Shown here piece after piece: positions 1 through 38,757 of a stretch of DNA of 38,757 nt. The DNA comes from a virus. A program made the translations under genes and the position numbers. The notes below the pieces were generated by a model, which was given only the letters and a program-made list of their open reading frames with translations, had not been told where the DNA came from and searched no databases. The number at the start of each line of letters is the position of its first letter. The first letter of the stretch is position 1. The stretch lies in IMG/VR virus record IMGVR_UViG_3300027037_000001. The stretch is one strand, 5' to 3'.

Positions 1-99
1 GTCGAAACCGAAATACGGGCTCAGCCTGTTAGCCCTTCCGTTCCTAATCCTAGCGCTGATAAGTTGCACGATTCCTGGTCAAGGGACTAAGCCACCTGC
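1..99. repeat. Terminal direct overlap, copy 1 (identical to 38659..38757)
   Basis: Base-by-base comparison shows that 1..99 and 38659..38757 are identical. This indicates a circularly closed or terminally redundant assembly. The unique genome is about 38,658 bp. Confidence 0.95.
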
Positions 100-405: not shown

Positions 406-563
406 TATCGGCGGAATGGGTTACCCCAAAAAACATAGACCTTACCCCGACGCCTTACAACATGGCGCTGAGGAAGCACGAAGATCAAATCTGGCCTTGT
501 ATCCTGAGTCATAATTTGATTCCACACATCAGCCATGGCCTTAACTATTTCATCGTGATTCAT
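402..563 (-). CDS. Hypothetical protein, 53 aa
   Basis: ATG 563..561 overlaps the annealase stop (TGATG). The product is MNHDEIVKAMADVWNQIMTQDTRPDLIFVLPQRHVVRRRGKVYVFWGNPFRRY. Its stop overlaps the stop of the convergent 262..405 gene. Confidence 0.45.
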   Translation of the reverse strand: MNHDEIVKAMADVWNQIMTQDTRPDLIFVLPQRHVVRRRGKVYVFWGNPFRRY

Positions 564-1213
564 CAGAAAGGATCCCCATCCTCGTTGACGAGGACGTCGG
601 CATAAGCGGGCTCAGCGACCTCCGCCACTTCCTCTACGGCCAACGCTTCCAAAGCACCCGATAGCGAATCGTCCGACACCTGATGCACGCGGATAGGCGC
701 AATGTCTTCCGCTTCGTCGGCAGTGCGCATACCCATCAGGATATCCGGCGCGTAGAACCGTCCGAAGAACGTCGCCGCCCGATAGCGAAGCATAAGCTGG
801 GGCATGGTCTTCCACTTGGACCCGTTCTTGTCCAGCCATCCTTCGGCCTTCGCCATGGCGATGGTGACGGTCACGCCTTCGACGATATCACCCGTATCCT
901 TGTCGGTGGCATAGGCCACGCATTCGGTGGCCGTCTCACGGAACCGAAGCGGCGTAAACCTTCCACACGAATTGATCGCCGAAATGATGAACGTGGACGA
1001 CCACGACGGGCGGCCGTGGATGATGTTAAGCGACTGCGCCACCATCAAAGGGTCCGCGCCGATGCGCTTCGCCATATTGAAGATGATCAGGCAGTTCGCG
1101 ATATCCCCCTGGTGCTCCTTCGGCATCAGCGATGAGAGCGAAAGCGCCTTGGCCTCACGCTGCGCCAGTTCGAAGGCTTCGGTGGGGGTTTCGTAGGTGG
1201 TTAGTTGGTTCAT
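563..1213 (-). CDS. Single-strand annealing protein, Red-beta/RecT superfamily
   Basis: 216 aa. The segment GSKWKTMPQLMLRYRAATFFGRFYAPDILMGMRTADEAEDI resembles the lambda Bet C-terminal core (PWQSHPKRMLRHKAMIQCARLAFGF..DKDEAE). There is a strong RBS (GGAGGTGA), and the gene shares an operon with an exonuclease. Confidence 0.8.
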   Translation of the reverse strand: MNQLTTYETPTEAFELAQREAKALSLSSLMPKEHQGDIANCLIIFNMAKRIGADPLMVAQSLNIIHGRPSWSSTFIISAINSCGRFTPLRFRETATECVAYATDKDTGDIVEGVTVTIAMAKAEGWLDKNGSKWKTMPQLMLRYRAATFFGRFYAPDILMGMRTADEAEDIAPIRVHQVSDDSLSGALEALAVEEVAEVAEPAYADVLVNEDGDPF

Positions 1214-2325: not shown

Positions 2326-2521
2326 GGGTGTACCTCGCTGTATGGTATGAGTCGATTCCGCCGTCGTTGACGATCTTTTGAAGGCCTTCAGTGGCAGTAA
2401 CTTGAATCGCCTTCAGGCTGTCTCTGGCTTCGATCAAAACATCTTCGATTTCCCAATGGCCGTCGTCATATGCGCGAATAGCTGATAGCTCAAGGCGATA
2501 AGCTAGGTCTTTATCAATCAT
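2294..2521 (-). CDS. Hypothetical protein, 75 aa
   Basis: ORF-track entry. Its start overlaps the exonuclease stop by 8 nt. Confidence 0.55.
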   Translation of the reverse strand: MIDKDLAYRLELSAIRAYDDGHWEIEDVLIEARDSLKAIQVTATEGLQKIVNDGGIDSYHTARYTLERIIEMLER

Positions 2522-3308
2522 CCCATTTCACCCACTTAGGCAACCCATAAGGTGTGACCTTGGCACGTGGCTTAGGCCACTCGTTTTTGCGCAGGCATTC
2601 GGCATAGACCTCATAGGCCCGCCTTGCATCTTCCTCGCCTTTCTGCAACACGCGATCATCCGGGTAGAAGATATTGCATAGGAACGGCGCTTTGTCTTCG
2701 AACGCGATAAATGCCATCTTCTTCACCGGCTCGCCAGTCGCCAGTGACTTTACGAACGGATAGTGGAACACCGCCGTGTTGTATCCGTAGTCATTGGCAT
2801 GCGCCTCCCAACGATCCATGTTGACGATCTTTTTCAGGTCGAAATCGAATCCCGGAACTTCCGAGTCGTCGATATCGAAACGCGCCTTGACGCGAAATCC
2901 CATGCCCGTGTCGGCGAAGTAGGAGACTTCTGCCGTGAATTTCTTCAGGATGGCCTTGATCTGCGGGTCTTGATGGATCGAATCACGGATACGCATGGCG
3001 CGTTCGTACTGCTCAAGCTTGATCGCATGCCTCCCCTCACCGAATTCCTCTACCGACTGCCATTCCTTGGTTCCACGTCGCACGCCATATTTCGTGGTCC
3101 AAATGAACCGCTCAGCGAACGTGCTGGGTTCCAGAATGGCCGCGTGGTAGATCGTGCCATCTTCCGTCGCCTGTGTCTCCACGGGTTCGCCGTACATGAA
3201 GTGCGCAGGGGACTTCAGAAGGCGCCGGAGTGAGGAATTACCCAGCGCCTGATCGGCGTGGTAGGCCTTTTCAGGAAGGCCGGAGTGGCGTCCGATAAAG
3301 TCAGTCAT
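2514..3308 (-). CDS. PD-(D/E)XK exonuclease, RecE/exodeoxyribonuclease VIII C-terminal-domain-like (DUF3799-like)
   Basis: Motifs seen: AYHADQALGNSSLRRLLKSPAHF, GTIYHAAILEP and FDFDLKKI, in the order expected for the family. I prefer ATG 3308 (RBS GGAG, 6 nt spacing) over the TTG at 3371 used by the ORF track. The gene pairs with the annealase. Confidence 0.75.
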   Translation of the reverse strand: MTDFIGRHSGLPEKAYHADQALGNSSLRRLLKSPAHFMYGEPVETQATEDGTIYHAAILEPSTFAERFIWTTKYGVRRGTKEWQSVEEFGEGRHAIKLEQYERAMRIRDSIHQDPQIKAILKKFTAEVSYFADTGMGFRVKARFDIDDSEVPGFDFDLKKIVNMDRWEAHANDYGYNTAVFHYPFVKSLATGEPVKKMAFIAFEDKAPFLCNIFYPDDRVLQKGEEDARRAYEVYAECLRKNEWPKPRAKVTPYGLPKWVKWDD

Positions 3309-3384
3309 CCGACGCTCCACCAACGACGATCCACGCGGCAAGTGCGGCGCAGAATGCAAGGTACAAGACAATAAATACAGCCAT
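3301..3384 (-). CDS. Candidate 27-aa hydrophobic micropeptide
   Basis: An AGGAGA RBS lies 5 nt before ATG 3384. The product is MAVFIVLYLAFCAALAAWIVVGGASDD, and its stop overlaps the exonuclease ATG (ATGACTGA). This is an alternative to the TTG-extended exonuclease model. Confidence 0.35.
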   Translation of the reverse strand: MAVFIVLYLAFCAALAAWIVVGGASDD

Positions 3385-3397
3385 GATATTCTCCTAG

Positions 3398-3883
3398 TTA
3401 GTAGCCGTCGCCGTCGCCGTAGCCGTCGCCATCGCCGTAGCCGTAGCCGTAGCCGTAGCCGTCGCCGTCGCCGTTGCCGTAGCCGTAGCCGTCGCCGTAG
3501 CCGTAGCCGTCGCCGTTGCCGTCGCCGTTGCCGTTGCCGTAGCCGTAGCCGTAGCCGTCGCCGTTGCCGTCGCCGTAGCCGTCGCCGTCGCCGTAGCCGT
3601 AGCCGTAGCCGTCGCCGTTGCCGTCGCCGTCGCCGTCGCCGTAGCCGTCGCCGTCGCCGTAGCCGTAGCCGTAGCCGTAGCCGTTGCCGTAGCCGTAGCC
3701 GTCGCCGTTGCCGTAGCCGTTATTGGCCGCTTTTTTTATCCACGACTCATCAGGGAACTCCGATGATTTGGCTTTGATCCTACCTTTCTGCCTAACCACA
3801 AAAGCCCTGACGCCGTCCATGCACGCCCCGGCCTCCAGGACGTCTACGACAGTAACAACCTCCTTGTACAGAATCGCATTCAT
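3398..3883 (-). CDS. Protein with a 55-aa N-terminal domain plus a (Gly-Tyr/Asp/Asn)x53 dipeptide-repeat tail
   Basis: ATG 3883 follows a GGGAGGA RBS and overlaps the upstream stop (ATGA). The open frame runs through 318 bp of hexamer repeats and ends in a TAA right after the last repeat. Confidence 0.7.
   Translation of the reverse strand: MNAILYKEVVTVVDVLEAGACMDGVRAFVVRQKGRIKAKSSEFPDESWIKKAANNGYGNGDGYGYGNGYGYGYGYGDGDGYGDGDGDGNGDGYGYGYGDGDGYGDGNGDGYGYGYGNGNGDGNGDGYGYGDGYGYGNGDGDGYGYGYGYGDGDGYGDGDGY
3401..3718. repeat. 53 tandem hexanucleotide units (plus strand GTN-GCC; coding strand NAC-GGC)
   Basis: Read directly from the sequence. Every unit ends in GCC. The other triplet is GTA, GTC or GTT, with one ATC at 3431..3433. 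The array has no spacers and lies entirely inside the CDS. Confidence 0.97.
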
Positions 3884-4170
3884 GCATCCTCCCACTTCTT
3901 CGCGGCCGCCTCGGTGACCTCAAATACGGCCGTCACCTTGCGAACTTCCATGTCAGCCCTGGCGCTGATCTTACTGCGCGCCGTCGGGCCGGTTTCGGCA
4001 AGCTCCATAATGCCACGGGTCGTGCCGAATGAAATTGCCATGCGCGCACCCTTGAGATCGATCACGACCCCTTTCGTGTCGCCAGCCAGGCCATAAAACA
4101 CGCCGCGATGCTCGGTGGTGACGATGACGGGACGAAGGGAGGCAGTCTTCTTGGCGGTCATATTTCTCAT
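3880..4170 (-). CDS. Hypothetical protein, 96 aa; first gene of the leftward operon
   Basis: ORF-track entry. An alternative in-frame ATG lies at 4161. The product is ...VIVTTEHRGVFYGLAGDTKG...GIMELAETGP... It is ATGA-coupled to the repeat-protein gene. Confidence 0.65.
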   Translation of the reverse strand: MRNMTAKKTASLRPVIVTTEHRGVFYGLAGDTKGVVIDLKGARMAISFGTTRGIMELAETGPTARSKISARADMEVRKVTAVFEVTEAAAKKWEDA

Positions 4171-4301
4171 CCTATGTTGGTTTATCCGAGGCGGTTATCC
4201 GCTATCGGGAGTGCATCCTCGCACCATCGAATTTGAAAGTCAACACTTGATTTCGATAGCGCATGGGTGCATCATCGGCGCGTCATTAACCGGAGCCGTG
4301 C
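4171..4301. promoter_or_regulatory. Divergent early control region
   Basis: This 131-bp gap separates the opposed first genes. It contains TTATCCG twice (4182, 4195), GTGCATC twice (4211, 4267) and GCACC at 4221. TTGAAAGTCAA (4233..4243) gives back-to-back -35-like hexamers (TTGAAA on plus, TTGACT on minus). ATCGAA/TTCGAT arms lie at 4226 and 4252. Confidence 0.45.
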
Positions 4302-4541
4302 ATGAAAAACCCTGTCGAATTCGTTATTTCCGTGATGGACCCTGGCCCGTCGGGAGGCAATCCGACACGCGACCCCACGGGCGTGGCCGTGCTAGCCGAG
4401 GTGACGGGGGTCAACCGGTCCACTGTGGGCCGTTGGCGTCGATCGGGGCGCATCCCTGTCGAATACTTCCCCCAGATCATCGACTGGTCCAAGCGGAGTG
4501 GGGTGGAGATTCCTCTAAAGAGGCTGGTTGGAGTTCGATAA
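4302..4541 (+). CDS. Cro/YdaS-like HTH DNA-binding protein
   Basis: 79 aa. The segment GVAVLAEVTGVNRSTVGRWRRSGRIPVEYFPQII matches the YdaS/Cro-type HTH pattern (xxVsqWxxxgxiP). It is the first gene of the rightward operon. Confidence 0.65.
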   Translation: MKNPVEFVISVMDPGPSGGNPTRDPTGVAVLAEVTGVNRSTVGRWRRSGRIPVEYFPQIIDWSKRSGVEIPLKRLVGVR

Positions 4542-6041
4542 ATGCAGCTACGACCCTACCAAATAGACATCGTCAATGATGTCCGTGAGGCATTTCGTTC
4601 TCATCGTCGCGTGGTCATGCGCCTAGCCACAGGTGGCGGAAAGACGCCGACAGGCGCGCATATCGTCCAGCAGATGGTCAACAAGGGCAAGAAAATCTTA
4701 TGGCTGGCTCATAAGGAGTTCTTGATATCGCAAGCCAGTGAGAAGCTACGCAACTTCGGGGTTAGGCACGGAATTCTTGCCTCTGGCAGGTTCCCCGATC
4801 CTCGTCATAACGTGCTGGTGTGCTCACTAGGTGTTCTCAGAAATCGTCGCGATTCGACGTTCGAACCTGATGCCATCGTGGTTGATGAGGCTCACCATGC
4901 CGTATCTCCGACGTGGGAGAAATTGCTTAGCTCCTATGGTTGTTACCAGTTGCTTCTAACGGCCACGCCTGAGCGGCCTGATGGGCTAGGAATGGACACC
5001 ATGGCGGACACCATTGTTGAAGGCATCAACGAGTCTGAATTGATGGCATGGAATCGAACTCACCCGGGCGAAGGTCTTTGCCCCTACCGGATCGTCACCG
5101 CCGAATCATTCGTTCACGTTGATGGCGTGAAAAAGAACGGCCTTGATTTCAGTCCTGGCGAACTAGGTAAGTTCATGGAGTCGAACGCCGTCCTAGGAAA
5201 CATCGTTGAGGAAGTTAAGCAAAAAGGAGTAGGACGAAAGTTCCTGTCTTTCTGCCCAACTGTGAAGTTTTCCGAGCAGGTGGCGCAGGAATACCGGGGT
5301 CATGGAATGCGTGTAGTTCACCTAGACGGAACTTCCAAAGAAATACGAAAAACGCTTGCCGATTACGACCGTGGCGAGCTAGACGGAATAACATCGGTAA
5401 ACCTGTTTCTTGAAGGTCTTGACATCAAGCGCGTCGGGCTCATCCAGTGGCTACGCAAGTCCGAGTCCGATATTGTGATCCGCCAAGGTAATGGTCGCGG
5501 ATGGCGTCCTGACACGGACGATGTGATCTTCATGGACCACGTAGGTAATTTTGGTCATTGGGAAGGTTCGCAGTGGATAGATAAGCACGGCCTACCCGAT
5601 GCGACACGAGAGTGGTCACTGGATGGGCGAAAGAAGGCTTACCGAGAAAAGCCCATGTCCATCTGGTCATGCCGCCGATGCTATTCGGCAAATTCGGCCG
5701 CTTACACCATTTGCAAGAATTGCGGCGAAGCTAAGGAAGTGAAAAAGCGTAAGGATATCGAGGTAGACACGTCGGTATCCATGGCAGAACTCGACCTAGA
5801 GGCCATCAAAATGCAAACCAAGCAGGATCAGGCGGCGGCTCGTGGTGTGGATGCGTTGCGGGCGTTGGGGTACTCGGAAGGTAGGGCATCGCACATCGAA
5901 GCAGCACGACGGGAGAAGGCGTTTAAGCGTGCGTCGGTTCGTGAGGTAGCCACGGCACGAGGGGACTTCCAGGCGTTGCGAGAATACATGCAATGGAAGC
6001 CTAAGCAGCTGGATTCGTATTTGGCAGGATCGTCGGAATGA
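4542..6041 (+). CDS. SF2 DEAH-box DNA helicase with C-terminal zinc ribbon
   Basis: Motif I is ATGGGKT, motif II is VVDEAHH and motif III is LLTATPER. A CRRC...CKNC zinc ribbon lies near the C-terminus. Confidence 0.85.
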   Translation: MQLRPYQIDIVNDVREAFRSHRRVVMRLATGGGKTPTGAHIVQQMVNKGKKILWLAHKEFLISQASEKLRNFGVRHGILASGRFPDPRHNVLVCSLGVLRNRRDSTFEPDAIVVDEAHHAVSPTWEKLLSSYGCYQLLLTATPERPDGLGMDTMADTIVEGINESELMAWNRTHPGEGLCPYRIVTAESFVHVDGVKKNGLDFSPGELGKFMESNAVLGNIVEEVKQKGVGRKFLSFCPTVKFSEQVAQEYRGHGMRVVHLDGTSKEIRKTLADYDRGELDGITSVNLFLEGLDIKRVGLIQWLRKSESDIVIRQGNGRGWRPDTDDVIFMDHVGNFGHWEGSQWIDKHGLPDATREWSLDGRKKAYREKPMSIWSCRRCYSANSAAYTICKNCGEAKEVKKRKDIEVDTSVSMAELDLEAIKMQTKQDQAAARGVDALRALGYSEGRASHIEAARREKAFKRASVREVATARGDFQALREYMQWKPKQLDSYLAGSSE

Positions 6042-6250
6042 TCTGGCATCGGGTCAGCGATTACGCTGTTCGTTCCGAAGACGGTCGATTTTCCATATGC
6101 CGGTGCAATGTCGCCGGAAGGATCGATTACACACTGTACCGCATATCGGGACAGCAATTCCTATCGGCAAGGCGAGGCGTCAAGGACAATGCGCCGTCGC
6201 ACCTGGTGGCAATCAATGAGTTGAAACAAGAGGCTGACGCATATGAGTGA
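6038..6250 (+). CDS. Hypothetical protein, 70 aa
   Basis: ORF-track entry with an ATGA overlap on the helicase stop. Confidence 0.55.
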   Translation: MIWHRVSDYAVRSEDGRFSICRCNVAGRIDYTLYRISGQQFLSARRGVKDNAPSHLVAINELKQEADAYE

Positions 6251-6431
6251 GCACATGCCTGGCGTCGATATCTCCAAAATGACCGTTGCCGACCTCTTAC
6301 AGCAATTGAGCTCGTGCCGGACGGAACTGAAGCCATTGGATCGTGAGCGCACCGCACTGATCCTTCAAAAGAGGGCGATTCGTGAAGAACTCCGCAAGCG
6401 ACGCGCCCACGGAGGCGCAAATTCAGGCTGA
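6243..6431 (+). CDS. Hypothetical protein, 62 aa
   Basis: ORF-track entry with an 8-nt overlap on the previous gene. The C-terminal half looks like a basic coiled coil. Confidence 0.5.
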   Translation: MSEHMPGVDISKMTVADLLQQLSSCRTELKPLDRERTALILQKRAIREELRKRRAHGGANSG

Positions 6432-6762
6432 TATCCTGGATCATCTATCTAACGGACCGACGAGGCTATGGCGGACCAATGCAGGCATGGGGTGGGCCGG
6501 GCGACTGATATCCAACGTCAGGGGCACCGTGACGCTCGCCACGGCTCGTCCACTGCATGGCATGCCCGAGGGGTGGCCCGACCTCACTGGGTTCACCCAG
6601 GTGGCGGCAGGGACAGTCCCTGTCTTCATCGAGGTTAAGGATGCCACAGGCAGAGTTAGCCCAGAGCAGACTAGATTCATCGAATTCCTGCGATCGAAAG
6701 GATGTCGTGCGGGGGTTGCCCGGTCCGTCGAGGATGCCCGTAAAATTATCGCTGGAGAGTGA
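6382..6762 (+). CDS. VRR-NUC domain nuclease
   Basis: A GTG start follows a GAGGG RBS at 6 nt. Motifs seen: GWPDL..., FIEVKDATGRVSPEQTRFIEFLRSKG and ARSVEDA, which is the typical VRR-NUC PD-(D/E)XK pattern. Confidence 0.7.
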   Translation: MKNSASDAPTEAQIQADILDHLSNGPTRLWRTNAGMGWAGRLISNVRGTVTLATARPLHGMPEGWPDLTGFTQVAAGTVPVFIEVKDATGRVSPEQTRFIEFLRSKGCRAGVARSVEDARKIIAGE

Positions 6763-6779
6763 AAATAGTTGTTGACAAT

Positions 6780-6822
6780 CCCATCTCGATGGTGCAACCT
6801 AGCTTCACCGAGACGAGATGGG
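6780..6822 (+). promoter_or_regulatory. 9-bp-stem hairpin just upstream of the next RBS, preceded by a consensus TTGACA
   Basis: CCCATCTCG (6780..6788) is the reverse complement of CGAGATGGG (6814..6822), giving a 25-nt loop that contains ATGGTGCAA. The right arm abuts the GGGGAAGGA RBS. TTGACA lies at 6772..6777, but I see no clear -10. Confidence 0.3.
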
Positions 6823-6829
6823 GAAGGAC

Positions 6830-6961
6830 ATGAACTACGAAATCGAATCCTACCGCGAGGGCGAGCAGTGGGGCATGGTGAAGGGTATTTTCTACTGCCT
6901 GGCAGCCGAGGCTTTTTCGGCACTGGCTTATCTTCTCGTTCTTCATGGGCTAGGCGCATGA
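6830..6961 (+). CDS. Small membrane protein, 43 aa
   Basis: Has a GGAAGGA RBS. The product is MNYEIESYREGEQWGMVKGIFYCLAAEAFSALAYLLVLHGLGA. An ATGA overlap leads into the next gene. I prefer this to the TTG-started 6769..7149 fusion ORF. Confidence 0.45.
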   Translation: MNYEIESYREGEQWGMVKGIFYCLAAEAFSALAYLLVLHGLGA

Positions 6962-7149
6962 AAGGCCAACGCGAATACGACGACCGTCACCCCGAGGAAG
7001 ACCCGTTCCATAACGGCATCCCCGAGGACATCTACGACAAGGCCATGGAATACTGGTTTGCCCGGGACGTGAATAACCCATCCGACACAGACATACTCGA
7101 TATGGCTTATGCCATTTACGAACAGGAGATCAGGAAATGTCAACGCTGA
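6958..7149 (+). CDS. Hypothetical protein, 63 aa
   Basis: Uses the in-frame ATG of ORF 6769..7149. The product is MKGQREYDDRHPEEDPFHNGIPEDIYDKAMEYWF... Confidence 0.55.
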   Translation: MKGQREYDDRHPEEDPFHNGIPEDIYDKAMEYWFARDVNNPSDTDILDMAYAIYEQEIRKCQR

Positions 7150-7337
7150 TCCGTGATGAGGCTGAAAGGCTGGAGTGGCGTAAGCTCTCCGAAGATTCCC
7201 GCAAGCTGGCTCGTTCGTGCTTCCGCGCGGCGCGTGTGCTCCGTGAGGCTGGCGAGGTGACTATGGCGGTCAGCCAGTTCCGGAATGGTCTCAGGGCGCT
7301 ACTGTGGGCTCGTGACTGGCTGAGGGATGCCCAATGA
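7137..7337 (+). CDS. Hypothetical protein, 66 aa
   Basis: ORF-track entry that overlaps both neighbouring genes. Confidence 0.55.
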   Translation: MSTLIRDEAERLEWRKLSEDSRKLARSCFRAARVLREAGEVTMAVSQFRNGLRALLWARDWLRDAQ

Positions 7338-9371: not shown

Positions 9372-9586
9372 GCGAATCGAAGGTGGTTAGGTACGGCCTT
9401 GGGTATGATGGTATGTCCGCTACCGAATGGGGCTACTGGGTCACCCACGCCGACTACAAGGCGCTGGAGGATCGGGTGAGGGAGTTGGTGGGGGCGGATC
9501 AGGCGTATGACGATTGCCTGGAGCATGCGGTCGTTCCGCTTGAGGCTGTCTTGCGTCGCAAGGTTGCTTTGAGCGCCTTCGCATGA
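9368..9586 (+). CDS. Hypothetical protein, 72 aa
   Basis: ATG 9368 overlaps the previous stop (ATGA) and is in frame with ORF 9356..9586. Confidence 0.55.
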   Translation: MSESKVVRYGLGYDGMSATEWGYWVTHADYKALEDRVRELVGADQAYDDCLEHAVVPLEAVLRRKVALSAFA

Positions 9587-10440
9587 CGGCTTATTACAAC
9601 GAATTCGAACCCTATGCTGCGGCTTGGCTTAGGAACCTCATTGACGCTGGCTATATTGCCGATGGCGTCGTCGATACCAGGAGCATCGTGGATGTACAAC
9701 CCGAAGATCTCGATGGATTCACCCAGTGTCACTTCTTCGCTGGCATTGGCGGATGGTCCTTTGCAGCTCGACTTGCCGGTTGGCCCGACGATCGAGCCCT
9801 GTGGACAGGGTCATGCCCCTGTCAGCCATTCAGTGTGGCCGGAAACCAACTCGCCCAAGCGGACTCGCGCCACCTCTGGCCCCACTTCCACCGACTCATC
9901 CGTGCCAGACGGCCCGCTGTCGTCATGGGAGAGCAGGTTGCGGCAGCGGTTGGAAAGAATTGGCTCGACGGAGTGTTCTCTAACCTGGAGTCGGATGACT
10001 ACGCCTGCGGGGCGGTCATTGTCCCGGCTTGTGCCGTCGATGCTGCGCACCAACGTGATCGCCTGTGGTTTGTGGCCCACGATGACCAGCAACGCGCCCG
10101 CGAAGAACGGCTACAGCGAGGCAGGGAACTCAGCCGGTCAAGTGGCGATACGGAAGATCATGCTCGCCCTGTGGTCGACGCTCCGGGCTTCGGATGGGGC
10201 GAAGGGTGGACCGAATCAGAGCTTCGGAGCAGGGGGCTGTCCGCTTCCGTCGCAGACGTATCAGGTCGGCAGTTCATCGAATGCCCCGACGGAAAATGGC
10301 GTCGGCTCCCTCCACCCGGAGTTCGGTGGCTGGGAACTGGGCTTCCCGCCCGAGTGGCTCGCCTGCGCGCCTTCGGTAACGCAATCCAGCCGCAAGTCGC
10401 CGCGGAAGTGATCGGCGCCTACATGGAGCAAGCCGCATGA
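9583..10440 (+). CDS. DNA (cytosine-5)-methyltransferase, orphan
   Basis: Motif I is FFAGIGG. Motif IV is SCPCQPFS, with the catalytic Cys. Motif VI is GEQV where ENV is usual. Motif VIII is QRDRLWF. Motif X is FGNAIQPQVA. No endonuclease partner gene is visible. Confidence 0.85.
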   Translation: MTAYYNEFEPYAAAWLRNLIDAGYIADGVVDTRSIVDVQPEDLDGFTQCHFFAGIGGWSFAARLAGWPDDRALWTGSCPCQPFSVAGNQLAQADSRHLWPHFHRLIRARRPAVVMGEQVAAAVGKNWLDGVFSNLESDDYACGAVIVPACAVDAAHQRDRLWFVAHDDQQRAREERLQRGRELSRSSGDTEDHARPVVDAPGFGWGEGWTESELRSRGLSASVADVSGRQFIECPDGKWRRLPPPGVRWLGTGLPARVARLRAFGNAIQPQVAAEVIGAYMEQAA

Positions 10441-13358: not shown

Positions 13359-13479
13359 TCTTTGACGGCCTACCCACCGAAGCGTAGGCTATACTTCCAC
13401 CGCGGGGAAATCGTCCGGCCAGACGCGCTCCTGCCTACCCAGGGCTCACCCGCACCTTTTATTGCCGGTAGGAGGCATC

Positions 13480-15906
13480 TTGAAATACCAAGGGTTCATC
13501 GACGCTATTCGTAGCGCGAATTTGACGCCTCCGGCGGAAATTGTCGCCGATGGCACGCTTAAGCGGTTCGCCAGCAACGGGAACCCAAGGGACACTGCCG
13601 GATGGTATGTTCTCCACGACGATGGGTTTGTCGCTGGAGTGTACGGATGCCACCGCCAGAGCATCCAGGAAAACTGGCACGAGAAGTCATACGATCTTGT
13701 CGATGACGTCACCAGGCGCGCCTTTCAGGCAAGAATAGAGCGCGCTCGAGACGAATCGCGCGCAGCCTATGAGAAAGATCAAAAAGAAGCCGCCGTGACG
13801 GCCCGTAGGCTGATCAGCCAGTCCACGAAAGACGCCCCGCACCCCTATCTCGATAGAAAGGGCATCCTGCCCCATGGCACGTATGTCCACCCGGTGCAGG
13901 GCCTGCTTGTGCCCATGCATGACGGCGAAGGCCAGATCGTCAATGTAGAGCGCATCCCGATCGATGCCAAAGAGGTAAAAAAAGGCCTCCCTTCAGGCCG
14001 CCGGAAGGGGTGTTTCTTTCCTATAGGCGATGAAATAACAGACACGATCCTCATCGCCGAGGGCTTCTCAACGGGTGCATCGGTTCACGAGGCCACCGGG
14101 TACATGACGTTCGTTGCCTTCTCGGCAGGCAACCTGAAGGCTGTCTACGCCTATGTGTCCGAACATTTCCCCGACAAACGCATCATCATCGCCGCGGACA
14201 ATGACCAGTTCACCGATGGCAACCCGGGCCTCAAGGCAGCTCAGGAAACGGGCTGCACTTACGTTTACCCCGAATTCCCTTCGATCTCTGGAAACCCCAC
14301 GGATTTCAACGATCTCCATGCCATCGAAGGCATTGACGCGGTTCGCGAATCTATCGAAAAACAGCTATCCGAACCCATCATCGATATCAATGCGGGTGAG
14401 CCATTCGATCTCTTTTCGCAGATGGATCCGCCTGAATTCTGCCGCGGCATGCTCCCCACGGCCCTGGAGAATTATGTCTTCGACCAGGCGGAAGTGATGG
14501 GCACCGACCCGTCCATTTTCGCTATGGGGTGCATCGTCGCCTGCGCCTCTGCGATCGATGCAGGCATAAAGATCCAGGTGAAAATATCCGACCCGTCCTG
14601 GACGGAATCCGCGCGGCTGTGGGGCGCTGTCGTCGGCGACCCGTCCATCAAGAAAACCCCGGCGCTATCCAGGGCGATCGCCCCGCTCAAGAAGATCAAT
14701 TTCGAGCTCACCCAAGGCAATGAAAAAGAGGACCGGTCATACAAGGCGATGATGGCCCAGTTCAAAAAGGCCATGAAGACCTATGACCCGGATCTTGGCG
14801 CACCCGAAGAGCCCGAGGCACCTAAGAAGAAACGAACGATCGTCGAAGACGCCACGATCGAAGCCCTAGGGGAAATTCTCAAGGACAATGAGCGCGGGGT
14901 TCTCATCTTCATGGATGAGCTCGCCCGCTGGTTCGGCGCGATGGACGCGTATCGCCAGGGCGGGTCCGGGTCCAAAGACCGAGGCAATTATCTGGAACTC
15001 TACAACGGCCACTCCAAACCCATCGACCGCATCGGGCGAGGGTCCATCAGCGTGCCCATGTGGGGCGCCTGCATGCTGGGGGCCATCCAGCCGTCGTCGA
15101 TCAAACAGGAACTCAAGCAAGCCCCCATGGACGGCCTGATCCAACGTTTCATGATTGCCATCGGCCAGAAACGTCCCTACTCGGAATCCAACCGCGCCCC
15201 GGTTAAGGATTATTCGGATGCCTACCACGACCTGATCCGGTCGCTTCACGCCGCGGGCTACACCGAATCAACTGTTAAAATGTCTCCGGAGGCTGATGTG
15301 GTCCGGTCGCGGCTGTTCGCCTTCGCGCACCGGATGACTTCCCATGACATCTTCCCCGATTCCTTCAAATCCCACCTGTCCAAATGGGAGGGACTGTTCC
15401 CGCGCCTCTGTCTTACCTTCCACGCCGTTGAGAGCCTCTCGGACACCCCCAAGCATCACCCGGTCAACCAGGCCGTCTCGCGGGCCACAGCGGAGCGCGT
15501 AGAGGCCTTCATGAAGGATTTCCTGTTCCACCACGAGTACGCCTTTTACACGGACGTCCTAGGTGTCACGGAGCAAGGGGATCACGCCCGCTGGATCGCG
15601 GGGCACATCCTGGCCCACGGCCTGAAGATTATCAGCCGGTCGGACATCAAGCGCGTCTATAAGCGCTGGGACAGTCTTCACGAATGGATCCAGGAGGCGA
15701 CGATGCGATGTCTTGAGGATGCCAACTGGATCTCATCGGCGGATCTGAAGGGCAATCAGAAGAGACTTCAGAAGTGGATAGTGAACCAGAGAGTACATGA
15801 TATGTACGTCGATCAGGCCGAAAAAGAGTTAAGAATACGTAAGGAGAGGATGGAGGGTATATCTGAACTGACATCAATGCGCAGTAGATTAAATAACCGA
15901 AAATGA
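13480..15906 (+). CDS. Bifunctional DNA primase / DUF3987-type helicase
   Basis: Toprim motifs are present (ILIAEGFSTG, IIIAADNDQ..GNPGLKAA). The N-terminal part is GTLKRF...GWYVLHDDGFVAGVYGCHR. The C-terminal part looks DUF3987-like (TIEALGEILKDNERGVLIFMDELARWF). The start is uncertain: TTG 13480 after AGGAGG, or TTG 13462. Confidence 0.85.
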   Translation: MKYQGFIDAIRSANLTPPAEIVADGTLKRFASNGNPRDTAGWYVLHDDGFVAGVYGCHRQSIQENWHEKSYDLVDDVTRRAFQARIERARDESRAAYEKDQKEAAVTARRLISQSTKDAPHPYLDRKGILPHGTYVHPVQGLLVPMHDGEGQIVNVERIPIDAKEVKKGLPSGRRKGCFFPIGDEITDTILIAEGFSTGASVHEATGYMTFVAFSAGNLKAVYAYVSEHFPDKRIIIAADNDQFTDGNPGLKAAQETGCTYVYPEFPSISGNPTDFNDLHAIEGIDAVRESIEKQLSEPIIDINAGEPFDLFSQMDPPEFCRGMLPTALENYVFDQAEVMGTDPSIFAMGCIVACASAIDAGIKIQVKISDPSWTESARLWGAVVGDPSIKKTPALSRAIAPLKKINFELTQGNEKEDRSYKAMMAQFKKAMKTYDPDLGAPEEPEAPKKKRTIVEDATIEALGEILKDNERGVLIFMDELARWFGAMDAYRQGGSGSKDRGNYLELYNGHSKPIDRIGRGSISVPMWGACMLGAIQPSSIKQELKQAPMDGLIQRFMIAIGQKRPYSESNRAPVKDYSDAYHDLIRSLHAAGYTESTVKMSPEADVVRSRLFAFAHRMTSHDIFPDSFKSHLSKWEGLFPRLCLTFHAVESLSDTPKHHPVNQAVSRATAERVEAFMKDFLFHHEYAFYTDVLGVTEQGDHARWIAGHILAHGLKIISRSDIKRVYKRWDSLHEWIQEATMRCLEDANWISSADLKGNQKRLQKWIVNQRVHDMYVDQAEKELRIRKERMEGISELTSMRSRLNNRK

Positions 15907-38452: not shown

Positions 38453-38748
38453 TTGCTCTGTGGTGGTCCAAGATATCCAAGTACGTGATCTTCATTGGCG
38501 GGGCGCTCCTGGCCGTGCTGGCGGCGCTGGCCTATGGCCGAAAGAAGGGATCGGATGCCGCCACTTCTGCGGCCGCTGACAAGGCCGATGCCGTGCAGGC
38601 AAGGCAGGAGGCCGCTACCGCTACCGTGAAAGCCGATAACGCCGAGGTGCGTCATGACGTCGAAACCGAAATACGGGCTCAGCCTGTTAGCCCTTCCGTT
38701 CCTAATCCTAGCGCTGATAAGTTGCACGATTCCTGGTCAAGGGACTAA
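38449..38748 (+). CDS. i-spanin (Rz-like)
   Basis: Has an ATGA overlap with the endolysin. The N-terminal TMD is ISKYVIFIGGALLAVLAALAY, followed by an A/D/Q-rich helical periplasmic part. The o-spanin start lies inside this gene. Confidence 0.7.
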   Translation: MIALWWSKISKYVIFIGGALLAVLAALAYGRKKGSDAATSAAADKADAVQARQEAATATVKADNAEVRHDVETEIRAQPVSPSVPNPSADKLHDSWSRD

Positions 38749-38757
38749 GCCACCTGC
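38654..38757 (+). CDS. o-spanin, 5' part (continues at position 100 of the window after removing the 99-bp overlap; full length 89 aa)
   Basis: A GAGG RBS lies 6 nt before ATG 38654. The product starts MTSKPKYGLSLLALPFLILALISC, with a lipobox Cys at residue 24. It is in the +1 frame inside the i-spanin 3' end, which is the overlapped spanin architecture. Confidence 0.75.
   Translation, partial: MTSKPKYGLSLLALPFLILALISCTIPGQGTKPP
38659..38757. repeat. Terminal direct overlap, copy 2 (identical to 1..99)
   Basis: See the entry for 1..99. Confidence 0.95.

Follow-up and report, generated by a model that had tools for sequence, protein, structure and literature searches.

A conserved phage gene pair joins DUF6948, a predicted Sm-like protein, to a Gly-X dipeptide-repeat protein encoded by a coding minisatellite

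The C-terminal tips of SSB and T7 gp2.5 are acidic tails that mimic nucleic acid on single-stranded nucleic-acid-binding proteins, and lambda Gam, T7 gp5.9, Ocr and ArdA are phage DNA-mimic inhibitors that are encoded early or beside recombination genes; in lambda, gam is located just promoter-proximal to the exonuclease and annealase genes. In the Sm protein Hfq, RNA faces competition from acidic, disordered C-terminal domains (PMC5606850, PMC6561178). Here, we analyzed a gene, designated the GX gene, at 3398..3883 (minus strand) of the IMG/VR virus record IMGVR_UViG_3300027037_000001, a stretch of 38,757 nucleotides that is referred to below as the window. The gene encodes a protein of 161 amino acids (aa) with an N-terminal domain followed by 53 consecutive Gly-X dipeptides, (Gly-X)53, and has homologs of the same architecture. 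We found that it is obligately paired with, and often translationally coupled to, an upstream gene for DUF6948, which is predicted to form an Sm-like barrel.

The GX start codon (ATG, 3883..3881) is preceded at a distance of 3 nt by a Shine-Dalgarno-like GGGAGGA (3887..3893, minus strand) located within the end of the DUF6948 gene (PF22253; 3880..4170, minus strand; 96 aa), whose stop codon (TGA, 3880..3882) overlaps the GX start as ATGA. The N-terminal domain of 55 aa (3719..3883, minus strand), as defined by alignment and a domain profile, is followed by 106 residues of strict Gly-X up to the stop codon (TAA, 3398..3400). These elements reproduced those given in a preliminary description of the window, with a translation matching the sequence quoted there, and its hand count of the X residues proved exact (25 Tyr, 20 Asp and 8 Asn, with Gly at 53 of 53 positions). 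At the DNA level, the array is a coding minisatellite of 53 hexamers, GGC-[T/G/A]AC, encoding (Gly-Tyr/Asp/Asn)53 (3401..3718, minus strand), and Tandem Repeats Finder (TRF) returned one period-6 array at 3401..3720 with 53.3 copies. All 53 Gly codons are GGC, and the X codons are TAC (25), GAC (19), AAC (8) and a single GAT (3431..3433), with no CAC, again as first described. The tail is indeed strongly acidic and aromatic, with 20 Asp, 25 Tyr, no Lys, Arg or His and a pI of 4.05, and its composition suggests that it is intrinsically disordered; the N-terminal domain is mildly basic (pI 8.9).

The DUF6948 protein of the window matched PF22253 in Pfam at 75.6 bits against a cut-off of 27 (E=3.4e-21). 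A highly conserved DUF6948 gene was present immediately upstream in 37 of the 38 loci that the GX protein retrieved, and many of these gene pairs overlap by ATGA. In the reverse direction, an open reading frame (ORF) with at least five Gly-X units was located directly downstream of DUF6948 in 78 of the 80 IMG/VR loci found through DUF6948, the contigs of the other two ending within 165 bp. The partner displayed several architectures: a domain with the GAC motif followed by the array, as in the window; a short leader (15-20 residues) and then the array; the array followed by a DUF7666-like C-terminal domain; and DUF7666 followed by the array, in P0019, with DUF6948 directly upstream. Two partners from Firmicutes-type phages (P0072 and P0112) consist of a 'KAFL' leader, the array and an unrelated C-terminal domain, likewise with DUF6948 directly upstream.

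The pair is also present in cultured phages. A tblastn search of cultured phages with the DUF6948 of the window gave no match, and carriers were found with a divergent DUF6948 query. Ralstonia phage NK-7 encodes the pair XCO36016.1 and XCO36015.1 (L130 2153..2566, PP919442.1), the latter opening with a leader of 8 residues, continuing with 64 Gly-Ser/Tyr/Asp units in which GGC is the sole Gly codon, and carrying the annotation 'fibroin heavy chain-like protein'. Pectobacterium phage Ymer encodes WCD42788.1 and the 73-aa WCD42787.1, while Iodobacter phage PhiPLPE carries gp84 (DUF6948) and an unannotated 81-aa GX ORF upstream of recE (L131 1164..1409, minus strand; NC_011142.1 ~46045..46290), placed between gp84 and the HNH endonuclease gp83. 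In these cultured phages, merely 8-12 residues precede the array. The varied non-repeat parts, together with the near-bare arrays of the cultured phages, indicate that the array is the invariant element beside DUF6948.

Among 60 downstream ORFs from about 24 loci, we identified YqaJ (9), ERF (4), RecT (3), SSB (2), AAA_23 (2) and DUF3799 (1), and in temperate-type contexts the pair follows the repressor and small early genes and stands just before the annealase and exonuclease. No natural fusion of DUF6948 with an array was found in our protein lists. In the PHROG profile phrog_18306, DUF6948 homologs match at about 153-231 and the GX array at about 57-134 (matches from L126, L130, L131 and L132), and some members of this family may be natural array-DUF6948 fusions. 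A gene composed of DUF7666 and (Gly-X)n (L125 3177..4489) has upstream of it, in place of DUF6948, a Radical_SAM gene of 229 aa and an ORF of 34 aa, the sole context resembling that of a ribosomally synthesized and post-translationally modified peptide (RiPP).

We next considered the GX proteins as a family. The full-length query gave 1731 matches, and 80 of the best 120 combined the domain with a (Gly-X)n tail. A word-indexed search with the N-terminal domain alone returned no match, and a domain-only profile recovered 250 clusters (E <= 1e-3) among 1.84 billion representatives, all of 41-218 aa. Of 124 new profile matches, 109 carried at least four Gly-X units after the domain, and most of the other 15 had truncated, frameshifted or degenerate Gly/Tyr/Asp-rich tails. 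The domain is characterized by the motif VTVVDVLxxGACxDGV, with D14, G19, C21 and G24 invariant in alignment A1. It had no sequence match in Pfam, PHROG, NCBIfam, PADLOC or the PDB, and the tail had none in Pfam, PHROG, NCBIfam or PADLOC apart from low-complexity artifacts; matches to TrAA12, Keratin head and 'serine-rich' entries were discarded as such Gly-rich artifacts. AlphaFold2 (AF2) modeled the domain as a small beta-alpha-alpha-beta-alpha unit (pLDDT 70), and a fold search with this model gave noise, with no fold match in the PDB. A tblastn search of cultured phages with the domain produced one chance match (E=0.7), and a scan of genome contigs yielded only two loci in metagenome-assembled genomes (MAGs).

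Across 174 family proteins, X was Tyr in 38%, Asp in 30%, Asn in 11%, Ser in 9% and Ala in 0.6% of units, with His, Lys and Arg each at or below 1.4%, and the family tails bear a net charge of about -0.15 per residue with about 30% Asp. Copy number in these proteins has a median of 19 units and ranges from 4 to more than 50; arrays on viral contigs reach about 56 units, which places the 53 of the window near the top. Of the features suggested for comparison among homologs, the Gly-X frame is kept, the Tyr/Asp/Asn alphabet holds in part, being widened by Ser, and the copy number varies. The C-terminal ends of the family proteins are unconserved. Some arrays (P0011, P0036, L017, L097 and L122) finish in an Asp/Glu run, for example …DADDDDEDEEDDDF or …DEDEDEDEE. 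In L020/L093 (IMGVR_UViG_3300020037_001234), the 3' part of the array is read in an Arg-rich frame (…GHGHGHGDRHGYRHRHRGGRGERRRP…), through a frameshift or a sequencing error; this was the sole out-of-frame array seen. We conclude that the GX gene is genuine, expressed early in the phage program by its position, and a member of a previously undescribed family.

The uniform codons of the array raised the question of which level, nucleotide or protein, is under selection. In 13 other genes of the phage, GGC accounts for 43% of Gly codons, TAC for 66% of Tyr, GAC for 51% of Asp and AAC for 63% of Asn; with GGC at 43%, 53 consecutive GGC codons would have a probability of about 4e-20 (0.43^53), so that the uniform third positions do not stem from codon usage. 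This explanation was also rejected because other arrays are uniformly GGG or GGT. Each of 39 arrays uses essentially one Gly codon, mostly GGC, with GGG in L001, L008, L009 and L012 and GGT in L033 and L034, and their X codons are TAC, GAC, AAC or TCC. In L126, a phage of 38% GC, Gly is encoded by GGC and X by TAT, GAT or TCT. Different arrays thus spell one and the same peptide pattern with different synonymous codons, which is direct evidence that selection acts on the product of the Gly-X frame, and the proposal of a real protein-coding gene in this frame is borne out. Start, frame and stop are conserved across loci, with the frame kept in essentially all of them. GGC and mostly C-ending X codons are also retained in L125, L127, L131 and L132 (40-47% GC), and this retention at low GC could reflect either recent transfer of the array or constraints acting on the nucleotides or through tRNAs.

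The order of the units carries little pattern. In the window, the first base of the X codons (T, G or A) follows a random order (32 runs against 33.4 +/- 3.3 expected), and a higher-order block structure was rejected on the grounds of this agreement and of a longest repeated X-string of 9 units (p~0.08 by shuffles). Arrays are composed of Tyr and Asp with either Asn or Ser: both of the latter occurred in 5 of 179 proteins against 22.9 expected (Fisher p=1.5e-9). CAC (His) accounted for 5 of about 1470 X codons, though it is one step from TAC, GAC and AAC. Three pairs of contigs with identical flanks of at least 1150 bp differed solely in the array, by 72, 162 and 102 bp, corresponding to 12, 27 and 17 units, and the same 41-unit allele was observed in six samples. 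The array is therefore a coding minisatellite of two or three hexamer unit types one base apart, on which selection retains Gly at every second residue and X within Tyr, Asp, Asn and Ser and excludes basic residues; its units are probably turned over by slippage or unequal recombination faster than by point mutation. The single variable base emphasized in the preliminary description requires no special mutational mechanism, as it follows from two or three founder units one base apart. An origin by a diversity-generating retroelement (DGR) was rejected, since the genome contains one array, hence no template repeat, and no reverse transcriptase domain was found among the 49 ORFs scanned; lacking both, targeted mutagenesis is unnecessary. 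The suggestion of a contingency locus stands as regards in-frame copy change in 6-bp steps between near-identical phages and falls as regards ON/OFF switching, given that a 6-bp unit never shifts the frame and its length variation brings no ON/OFF phase variation.

The array in the window is well supported by its assembly. The longest exact repeat within it is 47 bp, which renders it resolvable by ordinary assembly k-mers. An independent soil contig from ENA (L039, 38,785 bp) is 100% identical to 3486..7161 of the window and ends inside the array, thereby confirming 232 of its 318 bp (3486..3718); the remaining 85 bp (3401..3485) rest on a single assembly. Contig ends within GX arrays are common, having been observed in 12 of the 80 IMG/VR loci, in one 657-bp contig and in one 563-kb scaffold, so that copy numbers taken from short-read assemblies are provisional. 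The scaffold (L041, ENA ERZ28615622, 563,460 bp) stops 278 bp into a GX gene in a prophage-like region with a Cro/CI-type regulator, which places the module in temperate elements as well and shows that the array breaks large assemblies.

To DUF6948 itself we could assign a predicted fold. AF2 applied to 46 homologs gave a model with pLDDT 90 and pTM 0.79, whose five-stranded barrel carries two helices, one inserted and one C-terminal. In Foldseek, the top 50 PDB matches of this model were all Sm or LSm proteins (probability ~1, target-normalized TM up to 0.73), and its matches in BFVD were solely uncharacterized DUF6948 and Sm-like phage proteins. A PDB sequence search with DUF6948 was empty. 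On the basis of the model, DUF6948 is predicted to be an Sm-like barrel; it is basic, with a pI of 9.9 compared with 4.05 for the GX tail.

Taken together, these features lead us to favor, tentatively, a mechanism in which the array is a disordered polyanionic and aromatic ligand of the Sm-like DUF6948 that mimics nucleic acid. The (Gly-Tyr/Asp)n chain would be the working part of the protein and would imitate single-stranded nucleic acid as a flexible polymer: when extended, it would place the carboxylates of every second residue about 7 A apart, near the phosphate spacing of DNA, and Tyr could serve as a surrogate for stacked bases. Such a chain may bind the basic, presumably ring-forming DUF6948, and two outcomes can be envisaged. 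The chain could gate nucleic-acid binding by DUF6948, as the acidic C-terminal domain does in Hfq, here in trans, or the pair could act as a decoy for host proteins that process DNA ends or single-stranded DNA (ssDNA). Above a threshold, tail length would be of little weight, and we propose that this tolerance permits copy number to drift. The mimic reading fits the early position of the pair beside the phage exonuclease and annealase genes, as for gam in lambda.

Several points weigh against this mechanism. It rests on composition, charge complementarity, synteny and analogy, and it presupposes that DUF6948 forms a ring and binds nucleic acid. The known DNA mimics Ocr, Gam, ArdA and gp5.9 are folded proteins with fixed patterns of carboxylates, not Gly-rich chains, and searches of Pfam, PHROG, NCBIfam and PADLOC gave no homology of the GX protein to DNA mimics. 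The Sm assignment is by fold only, with Foldseek E-values of about 5e-3 for the Sm/LSm matches; at the sequence level, DUF6948 had no Pfam LSM or Hfq match, and hhalign against E. coli Hfq gave a probability of 0.1%. The pairing has exceptions, in that two DUF7666 and array genes are preceded by a radical SAM gene or by YopX, not by DUF6948. Moreover, pure (Gly-Tyr) runs without Asp were present in L004 (9 and 11 units) and L091 (17 units), and such long runs fit self-assembly better than mimicry.

Self-assembly is the core of the main rival, a condensate or amyloid-like scaffold, which we regard as possible though doubtful. Here, the two components would form a multivalent scaffold, in which an oligomer of the SH3/Sm-like DUF6948 binds the repeated GYG or GDG motifs or the Gly-Tyr tracts associate with one another. 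The resulting condensate, gel or amyloid-like material would concentrate early replication and recombination factors or sequester host factors, with copy number setting the valency. Tyr stickers with Gly, Ser or Asn spacers make up the low-complexity composition of prion-like, FUS-like domains, and the tail resembles these. The heptapeptides GYGYGYG, NYNYNYN and SYSYSYS form amyloid fibrils experimentally (PMC8163036, PMC10510724), which lends the scaffold support, as do the long (Gly-Tyr) runs of L004 and L091, the fact that the GX gene strictly co-occurs and is translationally coupled with a partner whose product is probably an oligomer, and the finding that the array is the sole conserved part of the partner of DUF6948. 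However, the Asp content of about 30%, with its charge of about -0.15 per residue, opposes self-association at neutral pH unless neutralized by the partner or by cations; the assembly is putative, and the order of X is statistically random and unpatterned.

That random order, the unconserved C-terminal ends and the copy range from 4 to more than 50 units would also be expected if the tail were a tolerated, fast-evolving low-complexity extension, an entropic spacer or filler, produced by runaway slippage, with function residing in the N-terminal domain, in DUF6948 or in both. We consider this improbable, as it is the array and not the N-terminal domain that is conserved beside DUF6948, the cultured phages make do with an 8-12-residue leader, and the composition is tightly constrained, basic residues being excluded and the frame kept in essentially all loci.

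The abundance of Asp and Tyr, and the binding of Cu, Zn, Ni and Co by Tyr-ladder fibrils of GY7 (PMC10510724), could point to binding of divalent metals or a metal-dependent structure, either beta-roll-like or through Tyr/Asp coordination. This idea, raised in the preliminary description, is weakened by the near absence of His, one mutation away yet encoded by CAC in just 5 of about 1470 X codons. The protein also lacks RTX nonapeptide periodicity and any HemolysinCabind match, and is cytoplasmic and early; we therefore hold a metal-dependent role to be very unlikely.

Aromatic-X-X is the motif of three-residue cyclophanes ('triceptides'), into which Y-G-D and Y-G-N fit, and the GX protein could accordingly be read as a RiPP precursor of the GrrA/OscA-like type, cyclized at Tyr-Gly-Asp/Asn with the N-terminal domain as leader. 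The homolog P0001 weakly matches TIGR04260 (E=0.056; 14 bits against a cut-off of 31), and the DUF7666 and array gene of L125 adjoins a Radical_SAM gene. By contrast, the window protein has no TIGR04260 match, the conserved partner is an Sm-like barrel and no maturase, and a radical SAM gene is absent from the phage genome, from the 60 downstream ORFs and from L001-L003; without a maturase gene, we rejected this reading as most improbable. The retention of GGC even in phages of 40-47% GC and the frequent contig ends might suggest an element that works as DNA or RNA (a platform for binding, a G-rich structure, or a DGR-type or phase-variable sequence) or an assembly artifact, with an incidental frame, but this is dismissed as barely credible by the GGG, GGT and T-ending X codons that elsewhere encode the same peptide pattern, the conserved start, frame and stop, the lack of a reverse transcriptase, template repeat or Rfam match, and, for an artifact, the independent assembly agreeing over 232 bp with internal repeats of at most 47 bp.

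The genome that carries the pair was also characterized. Positions 1..99 of the window are identical to 38659..38757 over 99 nt, indicating a closed circular assembly and hence a complete phage genome of 38,658 bp. It originates from soil, and the same phage is also present in ENA sample ERZ923190 (PRJEB8420). The gene set is podovirus-like, with a large terminase, portal, major head protein, SU10-type adaptor and SLT-domain internal protein; the 777-aa portal shares 38% identity with that of Bradyrhizobium phage ppBjS10J-1. Further genes encode a VRR_NUC nuclease (6382..6762, plus strand), a C5 cytosine DNA methyltransferase (9583..10440, plus strand; PF00145/phrog_363) and a DUF3987/Toprim primase-helicase (13462..15906, plus strand). 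No integrase, tRNA or Rfam element was detected in the genome, and a megablast with the leftmost 8 kb found nothing among cultured phages.

Gene map and domain matches agree that the GX gene is the second gene of a leftward early operon and is ATGA-coupled, as had been described. The exonuclease and annealase expected downstream were identified as a PDDEXK exonuclease of the DUF3799 family, directly downstream of the GX gene (2514..3371, minus strand; phrog_412, E=2.6e-52), and, in the same operon, a RecT-like single-strand annealing protein (563..1213, minus strand; phrog_561, E=4e-71). According to the ORF map and the gene calls of L039, an intergenic gap (4171..4301) separates this operon, with DUF6948 as its first gene, from a rightward 79-aa gene and helicase. 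The gap is presumed to be a divergent early promoter region; a sigma-70 consensus scan found nothing.

In summary, the GX gene and DUF6948 form a conserved, translationally coupled pair in hundreds of uncultured phages and in cultured Ralstonia, Pectobacterium/Dickeya, Iodobacter and Vibrio phages. Our literature search on DUF6948, DUF7666 or GX repeat proteins in phages found nothing relevant. DUF6948 is known to Pfam only as a domain of unknown function, its GX partner is without a family model and bears at most the annotation hypothetical or 'fibroin-like', and the pair matches no described system. The GX protein is among the most extreme natural dipeptide repeats, with a role in phages that is undescribed. 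Drawing these strands together, we venture, with considerable reserve, that the pair may constitute a widespread and hitherto unrecognized two-component phage system, in which a basic Sm-like ring and a hypervariable, genetically unstable, disordered polyanionic-aromatic polymer, serving as a mimic of ssDNA or RNA and/or as a multivalent condensate scaffold in early infection, control the access of host nucleases and of the phage recombination proteins to DNA ends. If a mimic or a condensate scaffold does act together with an Sm-like ring, this would represent a new principle in phage takeover or recombination control, and the protein would offer a natural tunable (Gly-Tyr/Asp)n polymer for materials and phase-separation research. 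On the practical side, short-read assemblies of phages break repeatedly at GX arrays, and annotation sometimes misses the gene, as it did in PhiPLPE. Since cultured carriers exist, these hypotheses are directly testable.

Comparison with described repeat proteins places the GX protein apart from each of them. The likeness to silk noted at the outset holds for the strict Gly-X periodicity (53 of 53 units) and not for an X dominated by Ala and Ser, X here being Tyr, Asp or Asn. In GX proteins as in the silk fibroin heavy chain, every second residue is Gly and the positions between are filled from few residue types, Tyr and Ser among them; the GX protein differs in that it is viral and cytoplasmic, is 70-160 aa long and has an X that is about 30% Asp and virtually never Ala, and the resemblance is one of composition, with no homology. 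The preliminary description was correct in setting the array apart from RTX repeats, its period being two residues or 6 nt instead of the nonapeptide GGxGxDxUx, with no HemolysinCabind match. Eukaryotic SmD1 and SmD3 carry C-terminal (Gly-Arg)n tails, which are basic, in cis and methylated for Tudor binding; they likewise combine an Sm-fold protein with a Gly-X dipeptide repeat, whereas the GX repeat is acidic and aromatic and resides on a separate protein. Dense GYG motifs are shared with FUS-type [G/S]Y[G/S] domains and the (X-Tyr)n heptapeptides (PMC8163036, PMC10510724), from which the GX array is distinguished by its high Asp content, perfect dipeptide register, bacteriophage origin and obligate Sm-like partner. 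With coding minisatellites, also termed variable number tandem repeats (VNTRs), and contingency loci, it has in common the change of copy number by whole units between near-identical genomes; it differs from contingency loci in that its 6-bp unit keeps the frame, with no ON/OFF state.

Among systems that act on nucleic-acid-binding proteins, Gam, gp5.9, Ocr and ArdA resemble the GX protein in that it is strongly acidic, early and encoded in the 'gam position', promoter-proximal to the exonuclease and annealase. Those inhibitors, however, are folded with fixed charge arrays, whereas the GX protein has no sequence or profile similarity to them and requires a conserved partner. The tails of the SSB and gp2.5 type are similar in being acidic, partly aromatic peptides, and the GX gene is located among replication and recombination genes; the terminal Asp/Glu runs of some family members also recall the acidic-aromatic C-terminal tips of SSB and T7 gp2.5. 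The C-terminal domain of Hfq is likewise an acidic, flexible peptide that accompanies a basic protein of Sm-like fold (PMC5606850, PMC6561178). Compared with the Hfq and SSB tails, the GX array is supplied in trans, and, in place of a short tip, it provides 40-110 residues of strict Gly-X of hypervariable length, whose binding to DUF6948 is putative.

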